A stretch of 12,331 nucleotides of DNA from Pseudomonadota bacterium (lineage in GTDB: Bacteria; UBA10199; 2-02-FULL-44-16; JBDRGF01), in contig JBDRGF010000035.1 of the NCBI GenBank assembly GCA_043818055.1, positions 1 through 12,331 of the forward strand. Direction: 5' to 3'. Below are positions 116-12,327 of the stretch, piece by piece. The position numbers and the translations under genes are program-made. Positions within the stretch are counted from its first letter, which is position 1, and every line of letters begins with the position of its first letter. The notes under the pieces were generated by a model. The model had not been told where the DNA came from. It saw only the letters and a program-made list of their open reading frames with translations, and did no database searches.

Positions 116-152
116 GTCTAAAAAGTTAGACTGTGAGTCTAGACTTTTAGAC
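116..152. promoter_or_regulatory. Two tandem palindromic sites GTCTA-N6-TAGAC (116-131 and 137-152); putative upstream activator sequences for a sigma-54 enhancer-binding protein
   Basis: GTCTA-AAAAGT-TAGAC and GTCTA-GACTTT-TAGAC are offset by 21 bp (two helical turns). They lie about 100-140 bp upstream of the predicted sigma-54 start site (~254), the usual position for bEBP sites. Confidence 0.75.
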
Positions 153-413: not shown

Positions 414-1754
414 ATGATAGAAAATGTAGACAGAAAGAGTATAATTAAATTCGCATTTCCACTTATTCTTACAGGAATGTCATACATTATGATGACTACT
501 GTCGATGCAATTTTTGTTGGTAGGTTGGGTGTTTCTCAAATTGCTGCTGTAGGATTGAGTGGCTTTCTTATCTGGGCGTTCTATAATTTTTTTACTGGGA
601 TTCCACTCAGCGTTAACACTTTTGTCTCACAGCATTTTGGTGCAAAGAATTACTCTAAAACAATTGTATCGGTTTATAACGGGATGCTGATTATTATTAT
701 CTCTAGTTTGCTATTGTTTTTCATTCGCATATTTACACCAGAGATATTAAAACTCATGAAACCTTCTCAAGAAGTACAAAAAATGGCTGTAATTTATACT
801 CAGATGCGATTAATGGGTGCGCCATTTTATCTTGCTAACTATGTTTTTGCCTCGTTTTATCGTGGAATAGGTGATAACAAAATAATATTAAAAATTAACA
901 TTGTAATTAATATCATCAATATTTTCCTAGATTATATTTTAATATTTGGTTTCAGTGAAATAAAGGGGATGGGTATTAAAGGAGCTGCCATTGCAACTGT
1001 TATAAGTCAGCTGATCGGCACATTAGCATATATTGTACTATTTTATAAATTTAAGTGCGAAGAGAATAAGAATTCAAATTACAAATTAAGATTTGATTCA
1101 TCTGAATTAGTTACTTTGGTAAAAGTAGGATTTCCTCGTGGCTTGGCTATGTTTGCGGAGCTTTTTGCAGCTTTTGTCTTTGTTACACTGTTAGGTCGAC
1201 TAGGCGATGCACAATTAGCTGCTAGTACCATAATGCTCCAGATAGTTCTTTTTTCAAATATAACAGCACTTGGTTTAGGGCGTGCAGGGGCATCTTTAAT
1301 AGGCCAATTTATAGGAGCGAAACGAAAAGAAAGTGCGTATAAAAGTGGTTACTATTCAGCAGAGATAAATTTTACATTTACAGTGATGTTTTCTGTACTT
1401 CTTATTATAAATTCAAAAAATATTTGTTCAATTTTTAATACGGATCCTAACGTAATACTTTTTTTTGATCGAATTGTAGTTTTTGGAGCTATATTTGTAT
1501 GTTTTGATGGTCTACAAATCATAATGAATTATTGTCTTGGCGGAGCTGGAGATACAAAATATCCCCTCTATATTATCTTAGTTGTAGCTTATCTTATATT
1601 TATACCCTTAGTATATTTACTTGCGTTTCATTTTGAATACGGAATATGGGGTGCATGGTTAGCATCGAGTATATTTATTGTTTTGTACGGTACGCTTCTT
1701 TTTTATAGATTTGTAAAAAAAAGATGGCAAATGATTAATTTAATGCCTGCTTAA
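414..1754 (+). CDS. MATE family efflux transporter (NorM/DinF-like)
   Basis: 446 aa with about 12 hydrophobic segments in two similar halves. MATE-typical motifs: FAFPLILT, VDAIFVGRLG, VSQHFGAK, RGIGDNK, NIFLDYILIFG..MGIKGAAIAT, GQFIGAK, GAGDTKYP, GIWGAW. Confidence 0.95.
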   Translation: MIENVDRKSIIKFAFPLILTGMSYIMMTTVDAIFVGRLGVSQIAAVGLSGFLIWAFYNFFTGIPLSVNTFVSQHFGAKNYSKTIVSVYNGMLIIIISSLLLFFIRIFTPEILKLMKPSQEVQKMAVIYTQMRLMGAPFYLANYVFASFYRGIGDNKIILKINIVINIINIFLDYILIFGFSEIKGMGIKGAAIATVISQLIGTLAYIVLFYKFKCEENKNSNYKLRFDSSELVTLVKVGFPRGLAMFAELFAAFVFVTLLGRLGDAQLAASTIMLQIVLFSNITALGLGRAGASLIGQFIGAKRKESAYKSGYYSAEINFTFTVMFSVLLIINSKNICSIFNTDPNVILFFDRIVVFGAIFVCFDGLQIIMNYCLGGAGDTKYPLYIILVVAYLIFIPLVYLLAFHFEYGIWGAWLASSIFIVLYGTLLFYRFVKKRWQMINLMPA

Positions 1755-2003: not shown

Positions 2004-2888
2004 ATGTCACAAGGAGAGGATGCTTATAGATCTGCCCATAATAATAGTCAGTCAAATGATGGTACAGAAGAAATTGGAATGTTCAAACAAGTAATGAATC
2101 TCGAATTACAGGTGCTCATGGAGAGACACTTAAGATTACAAGTAGACATATCATTAGACACACATCGCAGCTTTCTGCATCAACATGGGATTGAAAATTG
2201 CGAATCTGTTCTAGATGTAGGAACTGGCACTGGATACTTTTTATCACGATTAGCTACTTTCTATCCTGCAATCAAGTTCACTGGAATTGATTTTAAAGTT
2301 GATCTTATTAAGCGTGCTGAAACAATCTCTGAGGAATTGGGCGTTGAGAATGTTTCATGGATACATGACGATATTAACAATATGCAATTAGATAATGCTA
2401 AAAAGCAATTCGATGGCATACTTTTACGTTTTTCTGCAGTTCATATTCCAAAAATTGATAACACATTGAAATTGCTAAAAGCAATGCTACGTCCTGGTGG
2501 AAAAATTTGGATTATCACTGTGGATTTAGATCATATGTATAGTCAGCCTGAGCATAAGGCTTTTGAATTGTATAAAGAGGGTACTGAAAGGTTATTCAGG
2601 AAACTAGGGATGGATTGTCATATAGGTGCAAAGCTTCCTAAAAGATTGGTGGCTGCTGGTTTCAACAATGTTACACAAGAGTTAGATCCAATGTCTAATA
2701 GAGACTCTGATGATATACGTTCATATCAGCAATTCATGTTAAACGAAGCTAGACTATTTAACTATTATGATTCTGAAGCTATTACGCAAGCTGATTTAAA
2801 AATAATTGGAACTTTTGTTGAAAACACAGTCCCTAGGTCTGATTTTTACTGCACTTATGGTTGTGTTATGATTGCGGCAGAAGGGTGA
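2004..2888 (+). CDS. Class I SAM-dependent methyltransferase
   Basis: Motif I VLDVGTGTG, an acidic residue after beta2 (TGIDF), post-II FDGILLRFSAVHI, and LRPGGKI. ATG 2004 has AAGGAG at 1993-1998 and is the preferred start (294 aa). The frame is open from 1785, with an alternative RBS-bearing ATG at 1797. Confidence 0.9.
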   Translation: MSQGEDAYRSAHNNSQSNDGTEEIGMFKQVMNLELQVLMERHLRLQVDISLDTHRSFLHQHGIENCESVLDVGTGTGYFLSRLATFYPAIKFTGIDFKVDLIKRAETISEELGVENVSWIHDDINNMQLDNAKKQFDGILLRFSAVHIPKIDNTLKLLKAMLRPGGKIWIITVDLDHMYSQPEHKAFELYKEGTERLFRKLGMDCHIGAKLPKRLVAAGFNNVTQELDPMSNRDSDDIRSYQQFMLNEARLFNYYDSEAITQADLKIIGTFVENTVPRSDFYCTYGCVMIAAEG

Positions 2889-2895
2889 TTTTACT

Positions 2896-4878
2896 ATGAG
2901 AGTTTTACTGATTCAACCCCCTCAAAGTCGACCGGAAAAATTAATTTATCTTCCGCTTACCCTACTTACTATCGGTACTGAGATAGCAAGTGTGAACAAC
3001 GAAGTCCGAATACTTGATTTCAATCTTGAATTGCATCGAAGACAACAAATTTTTGATAATAGCCAACTTTCTATACTTGACAGACAAGTATCAGAATTTA
3101 AACCCTCAGTCATAGGATTAACTGCTTCATGTTTTAACCTTCCTATTGTTTTCTATATAATTAAATATTTGAAAAGAAAGTATAAAAACATACAAATTGT
3201 CCTTGGCGGGCCTTATGTTTCATTGATTCCGAATAAAGTTATGTCAGTGTGTCCTGAAATTGATATTGTCGTCATAGGAGAGGGGGAAATTACTTGTAGA
3301 CAATTATTCGCTGACACCAAACTTTCTCTTCAAGACGTGCAAGGTATAATTTATAGAGATAATAATAACGATCTTCATTACAATAATAGTAGAGAGTTAG
3401 TAGGCGATTTAGATCAGTTACTACCTCTCAATTACTCGCTTGTCGATATGGAAGCTTATGCTAATCGAGGAGATGCTTTATATCGCACAACATTTTATGA
3501 GATAGGAAGAGGATGCACATATAACTGTTCTTTTTGCTCAACATCTAAAATGTGGGGAAGAAACTATAGAGTTAAAAGTATTAAAACAGTAATTAAGGCA
3601 ATAAGGGAGCTTAAAGAAAATTATGGAATAAAGAATTTCGATTTTATTCATGATAACTTACTTATTGATTCGAACTATGTGAAACTATTATCCAACACCC
3701 TATTACAAGAAAAATTAAATGTGAGATGGAGCTGCACTGCAAGAGCTGATGGAAATTATGTTGATTCACTTAAATTATTATACGAATCAGGTTGTTATAG
3801 ATTGGTAATGGGCATTGAAACTGCTTCCTCTAAATTACAACATGACATTGGAAAAAGATTAAATACATGCAAATCATTGAATGTTATTAAAGATTGTATT
3901 AAATGTGGATTGCAAGTTTCTCCAACGTTTATGGTTGGCTTGCCAAATGAGTCAAATAGAGATTTTGAAGATACTTTAAAATTGGCATTACGTTGTCGAC
4001 TAGCAGGTTGCAGTGGACTTCAAATTCACAAATATTTACCTCATCCTTCAACAGCTCTTTATGAAAAGAACAAAAATTCAATAGTTAAGCGAAAGCATCA
4101 TCATTACTTCATGGTTTGGAATGAATTATCTGTACCACTTAATAATTTAATACTTAAGCACCCTGACATATTTACATCATTCTTTCATGTTCCAGCCGAA
4201 TCAGGAAGTGAAACGTTTCTTCACGATGCTGAGTATATATCTTATCTCTTGATTAACCATTTTCCTCGCACACTTTTATTACTAACACAGCATTATAATG
4301 TTTCATTTACTACTCTAATAAAATTATTTCAGGATTTTGGTATTACGGGCCATACTTTATACGCAATTAAAGAGCTTGAATTATCTACGATTCTTGAAAA
4401 AATCCTATATACCTATGATAGTAAAATTAGTGCTGATAATGTTTTTAGCAATATTTTAAAATATGAAAGTACAATTCACCTTATACAGATTACCGGGATG
4501 GAAAAAGCCAGAGCAAAAAACACTTCAAATATTAGCTCAGAAAGAGGACAGTATTATTTGAATAATCTGTTTAATACAGCTTCATTTTGCTATGACATTG
4601 ATGTGTTAGTTAAAACCATTATTAGTAACAGAGCAAATAAAATTCAAGAATTGGTTTTTCCAGTTCATTACGCATTTGTTTTCTGGAAGGGAACAATTGA
4701 AATATATGAAATAGAAAAACATATTGTAATGATTCTAGCGACTTTGCCATTAATTGGCACACGCGATGAATATTTATTGTCAATTGAAGAGCATGGGCTA
4801 TCAAAATTTGACTCAGTGGAACTCTTCAAAGTCTTTCAAGCTAATCACGTAATCAATTTAAGGGAGGAGGCATTATGA
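2896..4878 (+). CDS. Cobalamin (B12)-binding radical SAM enzyme with C-terminal extension; putative RiPP maturase
   Basis: N-terminal B12-binding fold pattern (RVLLIQPP..LPLTLLTI..VRILDFN..PSVIGLT..IVLGGPY..DIVVIGEGE). CxxxCxxC motif GRGCTYNCSFC at 3514-3537, followed by FIHDNL, W-C-ARAD, MGIETAS and FMVGLP. ATG 2896 is preferred over 2872 because it follows AAGGGTGA and the domain begins there. Confidence 0.92.
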   Translation: MRVLLIQPPQSRPEKLIYLPLTLLTIGTEIASVNNEVRILDFNLELHRRQQIFDNSQLSILDRQVSEFKPSVIGLTASCFNLPIVFYIIKYLKRKYKNIQIVLGGPYVSLIPNKVMSVCPEIDIVVIGEGEITCRQLFADTKLSLQDVQGIIYRDNNNDLHYNNSRELVGDLDQLLPLNYSLVDMEAYANRGDALYRTTFYEIGRGCTYNCSFCSTSKMWGRNYRVKSIKTVIKAIRELKENYGIKNFDFIHDNLLIDSNYVKLLSNTLLQEKLNVRWSCTARADGNYVDSLKLLYESGCYRLVMGIETASSKLQHDIGKRLNTCKSLNVIKDCIKCGLQVSPTFMVGLPNESNRDFEDTLKLALRCRLAGCSGLQIHKYLPHPSTALYEKNKNSIVKRKHHHYFMVWNELSVPLNNLILKHPDIFTSFFHVPAESGSETFLHDAEYISYLLINHFPRTLLLLTQHYNVSFTTLIKLFQDFGITGHTLYAIKELELSTILEKILYTYDSKISADNVFSNILKYESTIHLIQITGMEKARAKNTSNISSERGQYYLNNLFNTASFCYDIDVLVKTIISNRANKIQELVFPVHYAFVFWKGTIEIYEIEKHIVMILATLPLIGTRDEYLLSIEEHGLSKFDSVELFKVFQANHVINLREEAL

Positions 4879-4925
4879 AGCTAATTGAAGTTGTAGCATG
4901 TGAAGCTGAACAACCAATTGCCTAA
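4875..4925 (+). CDS. 16-aa peptide MKLIEVVACEAEQPIA; putative RiPP precursor or signal peptide precursor (not in ORF track)
   Basis: ATG 4875 overlaps the rSAM TGA stop (ATGA overlap). A strong SD GGAGGAGG lies at 4863-4870. The ORF ends at TAA 4923-4925 and is followed by a perfect hairpin. Confidence 0.75.
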   Translation: MKLIEVVACEAEQPIA

Positions 4926-4939
4926 CTGAAGGAGATACA

Positions 4940-4970
4940 GAAGGAGCGCTTCATGGTGAAGCGCTCCTTC
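4940..4970 (+). terminator. Perfect 14-bp stem-loop; terminator-like or mRNA-stabilising hairpin
   Basis: GAAGGAGCGCTTCA (4940-4953), loop TGG, TGAAGCGCTCCTTC (4957-4970). No U-tract follows, so it is not a canonical intrinsic terminator. Confidence 0.7.
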
Positions 4971-5001
4971 ACTCCCTACCTAGTGGGTATCGACATTCTT
5001 T

Positions 5002-6555
5002 ATGTACAAAAAAATTATTATTATACTTATATCTTCACTACTCTATTCTACTTTTTGTAATGCCGCAACATATGTTTCACCTATGCCAAGTCTCAATCTA
5101 GTATTGGATCCAGTTAAGGCAGCAGAAGGATTTAGTTTTCTAGTGATAAATCAAATGTGCGATCGTTTAGTCACATATGATGAAAAATTAAATATTGTTC
5201 CACAACTGGCTAAAAAATGGTCCGTGAGTAATGATGGGCTCACTTATACTTTTGTATTGCGAGAGAATGTTTATTTCCATGATGGCAGGTCAGTTAAAGC
5301 TACCGATGTTGTCTGGTCCTTAACTAGAATGCTTAAACGAAGCTCAGTAAAGTTCCATGAATTATCTTACATTAAAGGTGCAGTAGAGTATCATAATAAT
5401 AAAGTTAAGACTGTTACAGGTATTCGAGCTAAGGATAATGTTACGATAGAAATAGAATTGACAAGACCATATCCACCCGTTCTATCTGTATTGTCAGCTC
5501 CTGGTGCAGAAATTTTTCCTAAATTGAAGGACGAAAAATCTGAAATGCAATTTTTTAAAGCGCCAATTTGCGCTGGTCCTTACCGACTTATTAAAAGAAC
5601 TAATAATCTAATAAAATTAGAAGCGTTTAATAAATATTATGAGAAGGCTGATCGCACAGAGTTTATTGAATTTAGACTTTTAAAAAGAAAGGATGCGATT
5701 CAATGTTTTATAGATAAGCAATGCCATGATTTACGATGGTATTTTATGGCACCTGATGAATTGAGTGGCGATTACAAAATTGAAAAATCTGAAGTCGCGC
5801 ACGTAAATATTATTGCATTCAATGCTGCTAGATATCCATTCTCTGATCCTAATGTGCGTAAGGCGATTACTATGGCAATTGATCGTGAAAAATTAAGGAA
5901 ATTATGTTATCCCGATAAAAGACAGGCTCATGGCTATATTCCTACAGGACTTGGAGGGTATGATTTGCATGCTAATGAAATACAATTTGACCCAGTGAGA
6001 GCTAAAAAGATTCTAGAAAAGATAGGTTTAAATAAAAGCGTTCTTAGAAGAAAATATACATTGATAAGAATGACAAATTATATGTGTCAAGATAACTTTA
6101 AGAAGTTTATCGAGACGTCGTTGGGCAAAATTGGTTTAAACGTTGAGGTAGTGCATGTTCCACCTGATATGTTTGTAAATAAATATCTCTATCCTCGTAA
6201 TTATGACATGACTAATTTTACAATGACCTCGGATTATTCTGAGGCCTATTTTCTGCTCAATTATTTTAGAAGCAATTATCCCTCAAATTACACTGGCTTA
6301 AAAGATGAAAAAATTGATAATATGCTGGATGAGTCTACTAAAGTCGATAATAGATATGAGCGTTATAAAATATATCGTAATATTCAAAATCGCTTATTAG
6401 AACTCGCTCCAATAATTAATATGTATCATGATATATGGGTAACATATTATCAGGGTAATATTGTAGATTATCAAAATACTTCATTATCGATATACAATAC
6501 ATTAATTAGAAACGTTAGGTTTATTGGCAGTGAAGACAGAAACTTACTTAAATAG
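5002..6555 (+). CDS. Family-5 (OppA/DppA-like) extracytoplasmic solute-binding protein; orphan (no permease or ATPase in the window)
   Basis: Signal peptide MYKKIIIILISSLLYSTFCNA-A. Family-5 signature LDP..DRLV.YD..IVPQLAKKWSVSNDGLTYTFVLRENVYFHDGRSVKATDVVWSL, plus PICAGPY, FN..YPFSDPNVRKAITMAIDRE and NYTG..DEKIDNML. Confidence 0.93.
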   Translation: MYKKIIIILISSLLYSTFCNAATYVSPMPSLNLVLDPVKAAEGFSFLVINQMCDRLVTYDEKLNIVPQLAKKWSVSNDGLTYTFVLRENVYFHDGRSVKATDVVWSLTRMLKRSSVKFHELSYIKGAVEYHNNKVKTVTGIRAKDNVTIEIELTRPYPPVLSVLSAPGAEIFPKLKDEKSEMQFFKAPICAGPYRLIKRTNNLIKLEAFNKYYEKADRTEFIEFRLLKRKDAIQCFIDKQCHDLRWYFMAPDELSGDYKIEKSEVAHVNIIAFNAARYPFSDPNVRKAITMAIDREKLRKLCYPDKRQAHGYIPTGLGGYDLHANEIQFDPVRAKKILEKIGLNKSVLRRKYTLIRMTNYMCQDNFKKFIETSLGKIGLNVEVVHVPPDMFVNKYLYPRNYDMTNFTMTSDYSEAYFLLNYFRSNYPSNYTGLKDEKIDNMLDESTKVDNRYERYKIYRNIQNRLLELAPIINMYHDIWVTYYQGNIVDYQNTSLSIYNTLIRNVRFIGSEDRNLLK

Positions 6556-6560
6556 AGATT

Positions 6561-8855
6561 ATGAAAGACAAAAAAACACTCTACCATTCTTTTCTATATG
6601 CATTGCCTTTTATTACCTTTGTTTTTTGGGTAATCATTGCTGTTTGCGTTATAGTTTTATCAAAAAATGCTGTTTATCATGAACATTCTGTTATGATGAC
6701 AAGAGTATTGAAAAGTCTGTCAACTCAAGTTGCAAAAGACATTCAATATGGGGACTATTATCAAGTTAAAAAAACGTTTGGGGACTTTTATGATGGTTCA
6801 CAAATGCGCTATTTTGCACTTTATCTCGCTAATGGTAATTTGATTGTTGAGTATCCCGATTCTGGACAAACATCAAAAGATGGTCTTAAATTCCATAGCA
6901 ACATTCGAGACGGACAGGGAGATGTTATCGGTTCAATAATATTAGAAAGTGATACAAGCTCTACTGATAGAATCATATTTAAAGAAATTATTTTTTTTGT
7001 TATATTTGGGGTTTGTATAGTCATTATTGAAATGATCATTTTGTTAATTATGGCTAAAAGATATTTGAAACCTATAGCAAATTTTGCTGCTGAACTTGAT
7101 ATTATCAACCCCAATAATTATGAGGAAATCGAAGGGTATATCTTGAATTGTCAACAAAAATCATATGCAACAAAAGAACTGCAATCTTTTACGAAAGCGT
7201 ACTCTAGATCCATTCAAATGATATTAGCTTTTCATAGAAAAGCGGAGAAAATGAAAACTCTTGCAGCCATCGGTCAAACAACATCCATGCTTGCGCACGA
7301 TGTTCGCAAACCTTTTTCAATAGTTAAAGCAATGATGGAGTCATATGATACTTATATAAATGACCCCGTGGCGTTGAAGGAAGCTAAGCAATCGTTAGAC
7401 AAATCAATCAAACACGTTGAATCGATGCTCAATGACATTATGGACTTTTCCAGGGATGTAAAATTGGATGTTAGACCTGCTTCAGTTATTCCAGTGATTG
7501 ATTTTTCAATTCGTCAGGTTTCCCAGAATCATAAAGATACAGCTATAAATTTTAATTACAATATTACACACACCAAACATCCCCTTATCGATGATGAAAG
7601 AATTGCTCGTGTTTTTACTAATATTCTCTCAAACGCCGTGGAAGCGATCATTCAAATTGGAAAAAGAGAACACGGCACGATTGATATCTCAACTCATGAT
7701 CTTAATGGCCTCGATAACAATACAGTTGCTATTGTTATCGGTAACGACGGACCACCACTTAAAGTAGAGGACATTCCCAATATGTTTGAAACTTTTTTTA
7801 CAAAGGGTAAAAGAAAAGGAACTGGCATAGGGTTGGCTTCAGCGCATAAAATTATAGCTCTACATGGCGGTAAGATTGTTGCTCGCAATAGGGAGGAAGG
7901 GAGAGGAGTAGAATTTATTATCATAGTGCCTGCATCTGATCTCGCTGAGACAAATGACATTTCCAGATTACCCAAGAACATAAAAGAGACACAATTTGTA
8001 GAGGCTACAAAGGATGAGAGTGAGATAGAAAATATGATATCAGATCTTGTAAAGAGCATGCATAACATCAAAATATTGTTGCTTGAAGACGAAGCTCTTT
8101 ACAGGGCATCAGTGAGAAATACGATAAAGCAGAATAGGTCGCTGGACCAAATGATTACATTATATGAAGCCCATAATGTTGGAGAGGCTCTTGCTCTTAT
8201 AAAAAAGGAGAAGATAACACACGCAATTGTCGATATCGATCTGGGAGAGTTGAAAAATGGTTTTGATTTCCTCAATGAAGTTAAAATGGGATTTCCAAAT
8301 CTACGATGCATGGTTCATTCTAATAGATGTATTGAAGAGGATAAAAAGAAAGCTGTTGATCTGGGAGCTCTGGCATTCGTGCCTAAGCCTTTAAATATCG
8401 AACATCTGGTTGAATTTTTGGCAGGTAAAAAAATAGAGAATGCTCAAACAAGTGAGCTTATAGAAAAATCCAAAACTGATAATCATTCAACGATTTTGTT
8501 AGTCAATGACGAACAACCATTAATCATAATGATGAAAAGCATGTTGAACAGTGCCGCTAAGTTAAATAAGGATTCAAATATGATCTTGGAATTTAGCGTT
8601 GCACAAAGTTACGACGAAGCTGTTACATTGATGAAGAATCATAACTTTGATTATATTTTTAGCGATTTAAACTTGAAAGAAACCAAAAATGGAATGGACA
8701 TTATAAAGACAGCCAAAGAACTAAAGCAACTGTCGAAAATATATATAGTCTCAGGTACTCAGCGATGCGATGCAGAGCCAGAAGCACTGGAGCTTGGCGC
8801 AGATGGTTACTTGCAACTTCCTGTAAATGCAAATGACTTCGTTGGAATCATATAA
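6561..8855 (+). CDS. Membrane-bound hybrid sensor histidine kinase (2 TM, periplasmic loop, HisKA, HATPase_c, two REC domains)
   Basis: Two hydrophobic helices flank a ~105-aa loop. H-box MLAHDVRKP (His246), N-box NILSNAVEA, G1 NDGPP, F-box FETFFT, G2 GTGIGL. REC1 is ILLLEDE..AIVDIDL..FVPKP and REC2 is ILLVNDE..IFSDLNL..YLQLP. The gene starts 5 nt after the SBP stop. Confidence 0.93.
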   Translation: MKDKKTLYHSFLYALPFITFVFWVIIAVCVIVLSKNAVYHEHSVMMTRVLKSLSTQVAKDIQYGDYYQVKKTFGDFYDGSQMRYFALYLANGNLIVEYPDSGQTSKDGLKFHSNIRDGQGDVIGSIILESDTSSTDRIIFKEIIFFVIFGVCIVIIEMIILLIMAKRYLKPIANFAAELDIINPNNYEEIEGYILNCQQKSYATKELQSFTKAYSRSIQMILAFHRKAEKMKTLAAIGQTTSMLAHDVRKPFSIVKAMMESYDTYINDPVALKEAKQSLDKSIKHVESMLNDIMDFSRDVKLDVRPASVIPVIDFSIRQVSQNHKDTAINFNYNITHTKHPLIDDERIARVFTNILSNAVEAIIQIGKREHGTIDISTHDLNGLDNNTVAIVIGNDGPPLKVEDIPNMFETFFTKGKRKGTGIGLASAHKIIALHGGKIVARNREEGRGVEFIIIVPASDLAETNDISRLPKNIKETQFVEATKDESEIENMISDLVKSMHNIKILLLEDEALYRASVRNTIKQNRSLDQMITLYEAHNVGEALALIKKEKITHAIVDIDLGELKNGFDFLNEVKMGFPNLRCMVHSNRCIEEDKKKAVDLGALAFVPKPLNIEHLVEFLAGKKIENAQTSELIEKSKTDNHSTILLVNDEQPLIIMMKSMLNSAAKLNKDSNMILEFSVAQSYDEAVTLMKNHNFDYIFSDLNLKETKNGMDIIKTAKELKQLSKIYIVSGTQRCDAEPEALELGADGYLQLPVNANDFVGII

Positions 8856-8921: not shown

Positions 8922-11900
8922 TTATTCCATCATAGGCATATCGACGATAATAGGTGGGGGAGTTTTTGAATTTTCAAGTAAAGAGTTCTGAATGATTTTT
9001 TGCGTGTCTGCATAGCTGATACCTCCGACATAAGGGCGACCGGGGAGGACAAAGGCGCTGGAATGAAAAGATAGGGGGACGCGTTTAATCCCCCACGTTT
9101 CATCTATACAGGCATCTTTTCCTAAAATTTTTTCCCATTTCAAGCATCTGAAAGAATCAGCAATTATTATCCATTCATCTTTGCATTGGAAAATGTAACG
9201 GTCATCCATTGCAAAAGGTTTGCAGCTAGAATCAATTTTCACTGGCTGAAAATTTTCAGGTCGCCTGGATGCTTCACCACGAATTAAAATATCAAAGCTG
9301 TTACCCGGAATATATACACCTAAATCAGGATTATCGGTTCTTGTATGACTCCATCTTGAATAAGGAATGAGAATCAATTCATTTCCTCCAATAACAGGGG
9401 ACTCTATCGAACATTCTTTTGTAATCTTGCAATATTCAAAATGATCGGCAACTCCATCTATTATGGCTCCTGCCCCAGCATCCCAAATCCCACCAAACTT
9501 TTCTCCGTTCAATATGGTGTCAGGATTTTTAACATAAAGAGCATCTACATAATAAGACAAGTTATCGGTCATCAGTTTTTCAATAGAATCACGATCTCTC
9601 ATTGAACTCACATATGTCTGATATGCCCAGCCCGGAGCGGCTTTCAGTTGTTCATCTGTCAGATATTTTGCCTCGAAATCCCATATTCCATCAAGTCCGT
9701 TTGGCCCTCCTAAATCAACTCTCCAGTAACCATCTGAACATAGGATTGATATGTCCGCCCAGCCATCTGCAAATCTATGACCTTGGATATGTCGTCCTCC
9801 TAAATCACTCACCGCAGGCCTTGAGTATTTGCTCTTCCATGGGTCGATATTTAATTCGTCCTTCCAGTCATATTGAAGCTCTTTGTCCCACTTTGTTATC
9901 TGATTTTCTCTCCCGTTTATGTAATCGACGTTCATATATTCGATATGCCATTTGCCATGCTCTTTATCGTAAAGCATTAGATCAGATCTGTGATCTGCGT
10001 CCATGTCCTTCACATATGGCAAAACCCATTTACTGTTGAGCTGGTTATATTTGATCATGATATCCCATGAGCCGTATTTCTCCGGATATTTATCACAATA
10101 GCCGTCTGTCTCTTTCACTCCTTTGAGATCGGAACACCATGCGCTATCAGCACCCTTTGAACTCAAATCCACCTTAAACTCCCCCCTCTTCCAGCTCACA
10201 AGATCCATCAATCCATCGCCATCGACATCCATATCGACACTCATCTGATCTCCACTCGGCCAGAGAAGATCATCCGAACACAATGGATCGCTTGAGCTGC
10301 CGTCGGGATCGTATTTTATGCAGACCAGCCCTACTCCCTCTGAACGCATCGATATAATATCCTGTTTGCTCATTCGATTGATAGCGCCTGTTTTTTGTTT
10401 CAACGCTGGATATTTTACAGAAATCGTCTGCCAGTAGTTATCGACAGCTTTTAATAGTTTATCCATCTTAGGCTGGACGCCGATTTTCCTGCCGGTTGTA
10501 TCCTTCTGACTATCGCCAGTTGATCTAACAAACTCCCTCAGCTTCTTCGGCATGATATATCTCATCCGTCCATTGCCTGCTAATTGCATAAATCTGCTCT
10601 GAGCCAGTGTAACAGCTCCACCGACTATCGCAGTTGCAGCCGAGGTTCCGCCAAATCTGTTTGTATAGAACTTGTGTTTGTCGTTCACAGGGTCCTGGGA
10701 TGGCGGGCCGTTTGCGCCGCTCCAGTAAAAAGGAGAGGTTGAAGCATCGCCATATGGATATGATGTCGTAACTATGCCGCTACCCCATGAATATGTATCA
10801 ACACGGGGGCTGTAGTTGCTAAAAGATGCCTTTTGCATATTAGCACCTTCGCTTGCTCCTACCATAATAGCCCCGCTGTCCTGTGTCGTCGGATTGACCC
10901 AGACACTCCACTGGCCTGTGTATTGAGCATGGTCGCCGATATCTAAACCGGAATTCCCGGCACCTTCAACGACTGTGATTCCCATCGCTGAAAGCGTTTG
11001 GAAATATTTCATCTTGTCGGGAACAACCTCCGAAGGTAACTGACCAGCATTATAACAGGGCTCGCCAAACTTACAGTCTATTTTTCCATCCTTCCCCATT
11101 ACTGCGGATTCGATGAGATGAACTGAACCCGGGAATGTGTTCGAATCATGATCGTCACCTAATGGGAAAATATTTGCCTCTTTATAATAAACCGGCGGAT
11201 TCCCGGCTAATAACTTTGCATCCGGTGCAATCCCCCTTACGCCAAAATTAGAGGTTCCATTATGTGAAGCGTTTACCATGCCTGCAACAGCTGTCCCGTG
11301 TCCTATTACCAGATACATACAATCAATGCCGCACGATATGTAATATGGTTGTTTGTCCATCGGGAGATGATCTGCAAGAGATGTTTTTTCTCCAACGAGA
11401 GAGCCCTTTGGATTGTTCTGTTCATCATATACTGTATAGTTAAGCTGTAGATCCTCGTGAAAGAAATTATATGCTGCATCATCGTTGTATATATGCACAC
11501 CTTTGCCTGTAACTCCAAGATTCCAGGCATATTGAGTATCTATTCCTCCATTTGCTGTCAAATATCCCTGCTGGGATGAAAGATCGGGCGTCGTTATAGC
11601 TGTGAGCACCTTCTGCAGATGGGGATAGATGTATTCGACGCCGTAGAAATCTTTTAGTTTGTTGTATAAAAGAAGAGCCTCTTTGGGTTCTGCCTTGAAG
11701 TAATAGATCGAGTTGAGATCGGGGAGTTCTTCGGAGTTTAATTCTTCAAGATCGCGTTTGAAAGTGTCATAAGCGTCCTGATCCATATTGAGATATCGTC
11801 TCACCTCAACCGATGGATGTTCTTCGAGTATTCTATTAAGATCATCGGCAAGGGTTTGATAGTAGAAGTTGCGCACTTCGAATTGGGGTTGTGGTTTTGT

Positions 11901-12164
11901 TGCTGTATTGTAGGGGCAGACCCCCGTGTCTGCCCATTTATAAGAAGGCGGGCAACCACGGGGGGTTGCCCCTACATTTAATCTAACCTTCAAATCATCC
12001 CTGAAATGCACGACGAGCTCACCGAGATATCGATCGGACATTATCATATCTTCAGGGGTTAGCTCTTTGGTTATGGAATCTGTGGGAGGGTCGTAAAGAG
12101 CATCATTTCCTTTGCTTCCGCAACCTGCAATTAAAAATAAAAACAGTAGGAAGAAAAGGCGCAT
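8922..12164 (-). CDS. S8 family (subtilisin-like) serine peptidase lipoprotein with N-terminal prodomain and C-terminal FG-GAP/VCBS-like repeats
   Basis: Likely start is ATG 12164 (Met51 of the track ORF), giving MRLFFLLFLFLIAG-C with a lipobox. Triad motifs are GKGVHIYNDD (Asp), GHGTAVAG (His) and FGGTSAATAIVGG (Ser), with oxyanion GAGNSG and ASFSNYS..VD. Ca-binding-like repeats DVDGDGLMDL, DMDADHRSDL and ADGWADI follow. Confidence 0.9.
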   Translation of the reverse strand: MRLFFLLFLFLIAGCGSKGNDALYDPPTDSITKELTPEDMIMSDRYLGELVVHFRDDLKVRLNVGATPRGCPPSYKWADTGVCPYNTATKPQPQFEVRNFYYQTLADDLNRILEEHPSVEVRRYLNMDQDAYDTFKRDLEELNSEELPDLNSIYYFKAEPKEALLLYNKLKDFYGVEYIYPHLQKVLTAITTPDLSSQQGYLTANGGIDTQYAWNLGVTGKGVHIYNDDAAYNFFHEDLQLNYTVYDEQNNPKGSLVGEKTSLADHLPMDKQPYYISCGIDCMYLVIGHGTAVAGMVNASHNGTSNFGVRGIAPDAKLLAGNPPVYYKEANIFPLGDDHDSNTFPGSVHLIESAVMGKDGKIDCKFGEPCYNAGQLPSEVVPDKMKYFQTLSAMGITVVEGAGNSGLDIGDHAQYTGQWSVWVNPTTQDSGAIMVGASEGANMQKASFSNYSPRVDTYSWGSGIVTTSYPYGDASTSPFYWSGANGPPSQDPVNDKHKFYTNRFGGTSAATAIVGGAVTLAQSRFMQLAGNGRMRYIMPKKLREFVRSTGDSQKDTTGRKIGVQPKMDKLLKAVDNYWQTISVKYPALKQKTGAINRMSKQDIISMRSEGVGLVCIKYDPDGSSSDPLCSDDLLWPSGDQMSVDMDVDGDGLMDLVSWKRGEFKVDLSSKGADSAWCSDLKGVKETDGYCDKYPEKYGSWDIMIKYNQLNSKWVLPYVKDMDADHRSDLMLYDKEHGKWHIEYMNVDYINGRENQITKWDKELQYDWKDELNIDPWKSKYSRPAVSDLGGRHIQGHRFADGWADISILCSDGYWRVDLGGPNGLDGIWDFEAKYLTDEQLKAAPGWAYQTYVSSMRDRDSIEKLMTDNLSYYVDALYVKNPDTILNGEKFGGIWDAGAGAIIDGVADHFEYCKITKECSIESPVIGGNELILIPYSRWSHTRTDNPDLGVYIPGNSFDILIRGEASRRPENFQPVKIDSSCKPFAMDDRYIFQCKDEWIIIADSFRCLKWEKILGKDACIDETWGIKRVPLSFHSSAFVLPGRPYVGGISYADTQKIIQNSLLENSKTPPPIIVDMPMME
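11909..11976. repeat. GTAG-type REP doublet (REPIN-like) inside the S8 CDS
   Basis: TGTAGGGGCAGACCCCCGTGTCTGCCC (11909-11935) and an inverted copy at 11950-11976 (reverse complement TGTAGGGGCAACCCCCCGTGGTTGCCC). Each is GTAG followed by a palindromic stem; the spacer is 14 bp. Confidence 0.85.
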
Positions 12165-12187
12165 GTAGCATGTGGTGAAAGAACTCA

Positions 12188-12282
12188 CCCCCATCCGCCC
12201 TTCGGGCACCTCCCCCCGTTCAGGGGGAAGGGCAGAGGGGAAAGTATCATTGAGGGCACCTTCCGCCGTCCAGGGGGAAGGG
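12188..12282. repeat. GC-rich structured intergenic repeat; one long copy and one partial direct copy
   Basis: CCCCCATCCGCCCTTCGGGCACCTCCCCCCGTTCAGGGGGAAGGG (12188-12232) has a GCCC-TTC-GGGC hairpin and a CCCCC..GGGGG hairpin. Positions 12204-12232 are repeated at 12254-12282 with 3 mismatches in 29 nt. Confidence 0.7.
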
Positions 12283-12301
12283 AGGGGACAGAAAGCAAAG
12301 C

Positions 12302-12327
12302 GGGCGGGTTTCAAACCCGCCCCTACA
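12302..12327 (-). repeat. GTAG-type REP element
   Basis: The reverse complement is TGTAGGGGCGGGTTTGAAACCCGCCC: GTAG followed by a perfect GGGCGGGTTT/AAACCCGCCC palindrome, with the same TGTAGGGGC head as the 11909-11976 copies. Confidence 0.85.

Follow-up and report, generated by a model that had tools for sequence, protein, structure and literature searches.

The DNA analysed here, referred to throughout as the window, is the whole of contig JBDRGF010000035.1 (12,331 nucleotides), from the assembly GCA_043818055.1 of a Pseudomonadota bacterium (GTDB lineage Bacteria; UBA10199; 2-02-FULL-44-16; JBDRGF01). Between the gene for a cobalamin (B12)-binding radical S-adenosylmethionine (SAM) enzyme and the gene for a family-5 solute-binding protein it carries a 16-codon open reading frame (ORF) followed by a hairpin. 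This ORF is very probably a real, unannotated precursor gene belonging to an unstudied family of peptides that are made on the ribosome and modified after translation (RiPPs), matured by B12 radical SAM enzymes; in all likelihood it is translated and its product is the substrate of the enzyme encoded just upstream. The complete scheme proposed below, in which such a micro-RiPP would be C-methylated, exported and sensed by its own binding-protein/kinase pair, is offered with about even confidence.

The 16-codon gene and its signals

The small gene and the two signals that frame it are as follows.

4875..4925, + strand: putative precursor peptide gene of 16 amino acids (aa); residues 2-6 are the likely leader motif and the remainder the likely core
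4862..4870, + strand: Shine-Dalgarno (SD) site of the small ORF, including GGAGGAGG at 4863-4870; complementary to the 3' end of the genome's own 16S RNA
4940..4970, + strand: perfect 14-bp hairpin with no U-tract; likely an mRNA-stabilising or attenuating stem

The small ORF encodes MKLIEVVACEAEQPIA and ends with a TAA stop codon at 4923-4925. Its ATG (4875-4877) overlaps the TGA of the radical SAM gene (4876-4878), and GGAGGAGG lies inside the final codons (REEAL) of that gene. The SD duplex, at -12.1 kcal/mol, is in the top 4% for the genome, being equalled or exceeded at 66 of 1636 long-ORF starts. The arms of the hairpin (4940-4953 and 4957-4970) pair at 14 of 14 positions around a 3-nt loop, beginning 14 nt past the small-ORF stop; the 161-nt region that holds them has a folding z of -3.9, with an equally good fold in none of 200 shuffles, and there are 74 perfect hairpins of at least 14 bp in the 2.93 Mb of the genome. 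The original prediction, made from the sequence alone, had pointed to the ORF, a very strong SD site, an ATGA overlap and a perfect hairpin 14 nt past the stop, and all four are present; the span 4863-4925 that it gave covers SD site plus ORF, the ORF alone occupying 4875-4925. Their co-occurrence is beyond chance. Strongly SD-led ORFs of 8-40 codons just downstream of a long ORF account for 21 entries (20 ORFs) among the 1728 long ORFs of the genome; when these 20 are ranked by hairpin length, the window ORF comes first and an 18-aa ORF on contig C42 second, and in this genome-wide null both top-ranked ORFs follow paralogous B12 radical SAM genes.

The hairpin is followed by no U-run and is not listed by the terminator scan, on which ground a canonical terminator was rejected; a repeated element and an Rfam family were likewise discarded, there being no other copy in the genome and no Rfam match. 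A 35-codon ORF starting at 4953 was deemed spurious, its SD site lying within a hairpin arm and its frame overlapping the start of the binding-protein gene. The sequencing runs revealed no strain variants of the small ORF. In one RNA library an exact 146-nt piece spans 4791-4936, and that run has no other piece within 4400-5500; the loose end of this one resembles an adapter and it is perhaps a single fragment or DNA, and since contigs of this kind lack strand, ends and level it is a weak hint of expression. A DNA contig likewise begins inside the hairpin.

Small genes behind related enzymes and their shared motif

The original prediction had tied its case to the presence of comparable short ORFs behind homologous radical SAM genes, and such ORFs were seen in the same genome, in further families of its phylum and also in a second one. 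Across 93 genomes of the phylum, with loci fetched for most matches, 46 distinct B12 radical SAM ORFs were scored, 28 of the 46 loci having at least 1.2 kb of flank on both sides and three genes lying at a locus edge. Seven of the 46 have a family-5 binding-protein gene within 2 kb. In four of these seven (the window, C42, G005:C1 and G088:C69) an ORF of 16-27 aa, its SD duplex at least as strong as -11 and its hairpin 10-14 bp long, stands directly behind the enzyme gene, and in two more (C99 and G033:C3) the same position is taken by an SD-led ORF of 62-65 aa. Such an SD-led ORF was found behind none of the 36 other scorable B12 radical SAM genes, which have no family-5 binding protein nearby, and upstream of none of eight binding-protein genes that have no adjacent B12 radical SAM gene; the small ORF therefore tracks the enzyme and not the sensor. 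Two further loci carry an ORF of 17 or 39 aa upstream of the enzyme. Stems comparable to that of the window follow the C42, G088 and G005 peptides; the 27-aa G005 peptide is absent from the protein collection. Within the genome itself, sister cassettes on C42 and C99 comprise a B12 radical SAM gene, small ORF, methyltransferase, binding protein and kinase, while C75 carries cassettes of the SPASM type. In 400 genomes of the second phylum there were nine matching enzymes, all nine followed by an ORF of 21-61 aa with an SD duplex of -16 to -18, these loci being kin and counting as about one independent line; at one of them (L264, 21 aa) the ORF overlaps the end of the enzyme gene, as in the window.

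It is very improbable, on these counts, that the small ORF arose by chance or has a purely regulatory role, for example as a ribosome-loading spacer ahead of the sensor genes, with the enzymes acting on a small molecule. Sixteen codons hold little information, the SD site sits within a coding end, and relatives of the methyltransferase are mostly found outside RiPP clusters, all of which would suit such a frame. Against it stand not only the linkage of the small ORFs to the enzyme (none in the eight binding-protein controls) but also the SD sites of the sister loci, which are intergenic, and the last residues of the window enzyme, which continue beyond the point where its orthologue stops and are modelled as disordered; the leader-binding domain predicted for the enzyme argues in the same direction.

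Five of the short peptides share a K-hydrophobic-x-charged-hydrophobic window (KLIEV, KVKEV, KIKKV, KVVRI and KVKRV), and their best shared 5-mer window was equalled in 2 of 300 shuffled sets. The N-termini of the second-phylum precursors, which were not used in defining the motif, show the same pattern; with these as held-out leaders and the motif sought in the first residues, the C42 peptide ranks first of 2885 SD-led small ORFs. Because leaders bound by a RiPP recognition element (RRE) form a beta-strand, as reported for CteB (PMC8326336), such a motif suits a leader role, and the shared motif is likely to be the leader. The division into an N-terminal leader and a C-terminal core that had been proposed at the outset agrees well with this, in that the shared motif maps to KLIEV and the second phylum has a like motif ahead of repeated cores. 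The cores of the related peptides have nothing in common. Four other ORFs of the genome that score well against the held-out leaders sit in unrelated contexts, and a likeness to the IEIV/IEVV motif of the SPASM-type precursors on C75 was rejected, 556-1294 of 2000 shuffles being as good.

Besides the kinship of the second-phylum loci, several observations weigh against a precursor gene. Five of the seven enzymes near a binding protein were themselves in the search alignment; the seventh locus, G014:C33, has a doubtful 43-aa ORF whose start lies in an apparent repeat end; and a cassette on C73 has neither a radical SAM gene nor a convincing peptide. The comparison of enzymes by their downstream DNA rests on relatives more distant than the orthologue P0002. 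The window peptide itself fits the motif modestly, with 123 of 2000 shuffles as good in a leave-one-out test. Scored against the held-out leaders, it is matched by 48 of 2885 ORFs from the genome and by 43 of 1000 shuffles with a restricted start, and by 212 of 2885 and 158 of 1000 with an unrestricted one, and in the unrestricted comparison the ORFs of G026, C99, G033 and G014:C58 fit no better than their own shuffles.

Several of the related loci may be described individually. On C42 (G000:C42 3946-4002, L016) the 18-aa precursor-like ORF behind the paralogous B12 radical SAM gene has a strong SD site and a 10-bp hairpin. The C73 cassette (G000:C73 386-6122, L018) consists of an MFS exporter, methyltransferase, binding protein, kinase and sigma-54 activator; the 3' end of its MFS gene repeats the first codons of the C42 MFS gene, possibly a deletion scar. 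At L199 671-6179 (G026:C27) a 17-aa SD-led ORF ending in Trp is followed by two tandem B12 radical SAM genes and an MFS exporter. At L004 792-1301 and L006 3075-3584, proteins of tandem Thr-Glu-(Tyr/His)-Gly-Ala-Pro repeats, from two families, are encoded directly behind B12 radical SAM genes of 526-529 aa and are possible multi-core precursors. A sigma-54-led unit on the minus strand of G000:C38 (165-6901, L253) combines a radical SAM gene resembling the SPASM type with a small ORF whose tail contains Cys and with a divergent family-5 binding protein, and adjoins a paralogue of the S8 protein described below. Most precursors of the second phylum (L256-L264, for example G384:C43 and G321:C80) carry tandem Cys-His-Ala-Pro-x repeats after a conserved N-terminus, and a methyltransferase is often next, in L256 resembling the C-terminal domain of OvoA plus Trm112. 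Four of these precursors were scanned against NCBIfam and gave no match; the group has the look of a RiPP family in its own right, unstudied and perhaps metal-binding.

The radical SAM enzyme and its likely chemistry

The enzymes to which the peptide would be presented are encoded upstream of it, and one domain of the radical SAM enzyme is listed separately.

2896..4878, + strand: B12-binding radical SAM enzyme, ApyD-like; PF02310 and PF04055 over cut-off; CX3CX2C at residues 207-214
4210..4866, + strand: C-terminal domain of that enzyme (residues 439-657), predicted TglI/DUF2063-like leader-binding (RRE-containing) module
2004..2888, + strand: class I SAM-dependent methyltransferase (Methyltransf_31/25); frame open from 1785, likely start 2004

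The best NCBIfam match of the radical SAM enzyme is ApyD, over residues 29-622, with 197 bits against a cut-off of 750, and ApyD is the best model also for all seven relatives tested. C207, C211 and C214 are invariant in 74 of 74 aligned rows; a further Cys at residue 79 (window position ~3130), in the cobalamin-binding domain, is conserved in 52 of the 74 relatives. The AlphaFold model (pLDDT 92.9) has an overall fold matching TokK, TsrM and CysS. Its residues 439-657 align with TglI (8hci_C; Z 11.1, rmsd 3.6, 204 aligned; VIA-align) and with the DUF2063 protein NGO1945 (3dee_A; Z 10.3, rmsd 4.0, 185 aligned), these Z values being moderate and resting on a predicted model; DUF2063 clusters were found in the Atlas for the C-terminal part at TM 0.63-0.64. 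The C-terminal domain of TglI is reported to be an RRE required for precursor binding (PMC10880893), and that of the window enzyme is predicted to be a leader-binding module of the same type. The enzyme has no match to the Pfam RRE model and none to SPASM/twitch at E 0.01, and a single-sequence fold of the C-terminal domain was discarded at pLDDT 42. One second-phylum enzyme matches the ApyI model weakly at its C-terminus. The only close orthologue in the protein collections is P0002 (40% identity), which is also the sole supported sister in the radical SAM tree; that tree is unresolved at depth and does not show the cassette enzymes as one clade.

An SD duplex of -8.3 precedes the methyltransferase start at 2004, the position from which homologues 274-296 aa long align. 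When metagenome and genome contigs were scanned with an alignment of this enzyme, the matches listed were only distant, generic methyltransferases, the 46-54% homologues not being among them.

The general marks of a RiPP with a B12 radical SAM maturase are thus present: a small ORF linked to the enzyme, a cobalamin-binding domain joined to a CX3CX2C radical SAM domain and, as predicted, an RRE-type leader-binding module. The system works like the ApyA/ApyD and MpcA/MpcB pairs, and lacks the defining features of aminopyruvatides, clavusporins and ranthipeptides. In the aminopyruvatide cluster of Burkholderia thailandensis (ApyA/ApyD/ApyS), as in the window, an RRE-containing B12 radical SAM enzyme and a class I methyltransferase are encoded beside the precursor, and ApyD is described as methylating the penultimate residue of ApyA; MNIO is reported in 100% of apy clusters (PMC10635010). 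The window enzyme, however, misses the ApyD equivalog cut-off, and the operon has no MNIO, ApyI or P450 gene (MNIO and ApyI were sought in the window's six long genes, the genome beyond it not being searched for MNIO). The window precursor, which ends in Ala, also lacks the CBX2-3G motif given for that family (PMC10635010), as well as Gly, a C-terminal Asp and a penultimate Tyr, while the binding-protein/kinase pair and the sigma-54 site are extras of the window. The mpc cluster for the clavusporins likewise has a B12 radical SAM peptide maturase and a transporter, and MpcB is reported to depend on the leader when it methylates Pro, Val, Ile and Thr at unactivated carbons (PMC10849626). According to the same account MpcB has a CX7CX2C motif, unlike the CX3CX2C of the window enzyme, the cluster includes an S9 peptidase and a DUF5825 protein, neither of which was matched in the window, and MpcA is a 39-aa precursor with a 17-18-aa leader that gives a surfactant product, in contrast to the 16 aa here.

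In the proposed pathway the B12 radical SAM enzyme would bind the 16-mer through its KLIEV segment and C-methylate it near the C-terminus. Methylation of an unactivated carbon is probably the main reaction, by analogy with these systems; Pro14 or Ile15 would be the most likely site, because ApyD methylates a penultimate residue and MpcB methylates Pro, Ile and Val. The class I methyltransferase might then add an N- or O-methyl group, a step for which the case is evenly poised.

That the peptide is the substrate for formation of a crosslink or ring, such as a thioether at Cys9, in place of methylation is improbable. B12 radical SAM enzymes are reported also to form C-S and C-C bonds and to contract rings (PMC10635010), AprD4 and OxsB, neither of them a methylating enzyme, rank among the best fold matches of the window enzyme, and the peptides of the window, C42 and G005 contain Cys, as do most second-phylum cores. 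On the other side, the enzyme has no SPASM/twitch match, its best model and that of its relatives is a C-methyltransferase, and Cys is absent from the G088:C69, G026:C27 and L264 peptides. Judging by these three peptides, the reaction that defines the family is not a Cys crosslink; since they are not orthologues of the 16-mer, Cys9 may matter here, so that the Cys-based chemistry envisaged at the outset may hold for the window peptide but is not a family feature. For the same reasons (no SPASM/twitch, and a donor Cys that is not conserved among related precursors) the system departs from ranthipeptides and sactipeptides.

The window precursor is shorter than the 22-aa, RRE-dependent FzmZ of fosfazinomycin biosynthesis, likewise very short and long overlooked, which is described as having an N-terminal RRE motif and an enzyme with a C-terminal RRE, and as releasing a very small product without a protease dedicated to it (PMC13622209); it differs in its asparagine-synthetase-like enzymes and YxxP leader, and the account reports no sensor in the parts consulted. 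Shorter precursors still are reported for the P450-made biarylitides. Precursors of this size escape gene callers and RiPP miners that start at 30 residues, as FzmZ did (PMC13622209). A 16-mer whose leader motif spans five residues would give a cobalamin radical enzyme a minimal substrate that is simple to synthesise, and the reactions of this enzyme class at unactivated carbons attract broad interest.

The operon and its binding-protein/kinase pair

The remaining features of the window are the following.

5002..6555, + strand: family-5 (DppA/OppA-type) solute-binding protein; PF00496; no adjacent permease
6561..8855, + strand: membrane hybrid histidine kinase with a single Cache/CHASE8-like periplasmic domain and two receiver domains
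414..1754, + strand: MATE-family exporter; TIGR00797 at 284 bits, cut-off 147; PF01554
228..243, + strand: sigma-54-type -24/-12 promoter site; exact pattern match
116..152, no strand: imperfect palindrome upstream of the promoter, 17-nt arms, 82% complementary; possible activator-binding site
8922..12314, - strand: S8 subtilase-like protein, convergent; PF00082; membership of the system uncertain

The sigma-54-type site is followed by five co-oriented long genes, for the MATE exporter, the class I methyltransferase, the B12 radical SAM enzyme, the binding protein and the hybrid histidine kinase. The binding protein, the kinase and the sigma-54 site had no place in the original prediction. The pattern match, which taken alone is not above chance at one mismatch, also precedes the C73, C99 and C75 cassettes, and there are 47 such sites genome-wide. 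The window operon has no sigma-54 activator gene; activators are present in the C73, C75 and C99 cassettes. Positions 1-330 of the window, palindrome and sigma-54 site included, are nearly the same as 1-330 of G000:C73, after which the two contigs diverge into different cassettes.

The binding-protein gene is linked to the kinase and not to a permease, the permease genes lying on other contigs (C102, C21 and C33). The genome has nine family-5 matches, those on C35, C42, C73 and C99 preceding kinases, and at least four binding-protein/kinase operons. A complex model of the binding protein with the kinase periplasmic domain scored 0.68, against 0.00 for the best of three controls, on a scale whose mark is reached by 116 of 157 solved pairs and by 2 of 215 mismatched ones; between runs, at least 95% of contacts agree, and the partner pLDDT is at least 75. 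The binding protein is accordingly predicted to contact the kinase periplasmic domain, although the score may reflect likeness to solved receptor pairs. The binding protein has a weak SD duplex (-2.9), and this, set against the strong SD and downstream stem of the small ORF, would mean much peptide and little receptor.

The operon is probably built to sense a peptide-like ligand, and its product is probably C-methylated. After modification, general peptidases or S8 proteins would trim the peptide to a few residues and the MATE protein would export the trimmed product, which would be the ligand of the binding protein; the kinase would then feed back on the cassette promoter by way of a sigma-54 activator whose gene lies elsewhere. 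This sensing of the product, with its feedback, seems to us as well favoured as not. More tentatively, Gram-negative-type uncultured bacteria might use B12 radical SAM-methylated micro-RiPPs of 16-27 residues as private autoinducers, each read by a dedicated family-5 binding-protein/kinase receptor, with several orthogonal channels per genome and with the 16-mer near the minimum for an RRE-guided substrate.

It is rather unlikely, on balance, that the precursor and its methylation are real and the pair instead senses an outside cue, such as di- or tripeptides of the surroundings, and merely switches the operon on, the product being an effector such as an inhibitor, metal binder or surfactant. 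The closest solved relatives of the binding protein are dipeptide-binding proteins, which take ordinary dipeptides, and the second-phylum precursors, with their Cys/His/Pro repeats, have no binding protein in view. The four nearest relatives of the binding protein (42, 37, 36 and 34%) have no adjacent B12 radical SAM gene or peptide; three of them precede a kinase and one lies at a contig end, and three adjoin M20 peptidases or a POT transporter. These findings count against sensing of the product, as do the absence of a binding protein within 1.5 kb at the nine second-phylum loci and the presence of a B12 radical SAM gene beside only one of ten relatives of the methyltransferase. The lack of a co-oriented protease in the operon weighs against the proposed scheme as a whole. 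Sensing of the product is favoured, on the other hand, by seven divergent B12 radical SAM enzymes (24-33% identical to that of the window) that are each encoded within about 1 kb of a binding-protein gene, most of those binding proteins being only 20-28% identical to that of the window, a pattern better explained by one receptor per product than by a single general nutrient sensor; the multiplicity of such operons in the genome tells the same way. Cassette-type binding proteins gave six weaker matches in 251 second-phylum genomes. Since relatives of the binding protein and the methyltransferase often occur without a B12 radical SAM gene, and the second phylum lacks the binding protein, the modules appear to mix and match, and as to the ligand the gene context tells in both directions.

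There are precedents for parts of this scheme. In CBP/ChiS and LuxP/LuxQ a periplasmic binding protein serves as co-receptor of a kinase, CBP belonging to family 5 and LuxPQ sensing a self-made autoinducer; what they sense, however, is chitin oligosaccharides and AI-2, neither being a modified peptide of ribosomal origin, and CBP also serves a transporter (PMC8050422). SCIFF-derived ranthipeptides are radical SAM-modified ribosomal signalling peptides in clostridial quorum sensing (Chen et al. 2020, as cited in PMC8102284), differing in their SPASM enzyme, thioether chemistry and Gram-positive hosts, and with no co-encoded receptor described in the parts of that account consulted (PMC8102284). 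If the receptor encoded alongside does take the product as its ligand, a Gram-negative-type cell would here be signalling with a modified peptide by way of a periplasmic binding protein. A search of the full-text literature, covering few subscription journals, found no description of a B12 radical SAM micro-precursor operon with a binding-protein/kinase pair, and the homologue lists in the Apy and Mpc supplements could include such loci. As all the parts lie on one operon, the claim is open to heterologous expression.

The convergent S8 protein could either be a protease involved in processing or represent an output that is regulated; it has at least ten paralogues at 70-80% identity in the genome, and relatives lie near the cassettes on C99, G005:C1 and G033:C3. 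A plasmid search returned three matches, all generic. Tandem arrays of six or seven family-5 binding-protein genes occur at L255 (G014:C39), G003:C22 and G012:C35, and the L255 array adjoins Dpp-type permease and ATPase genes.

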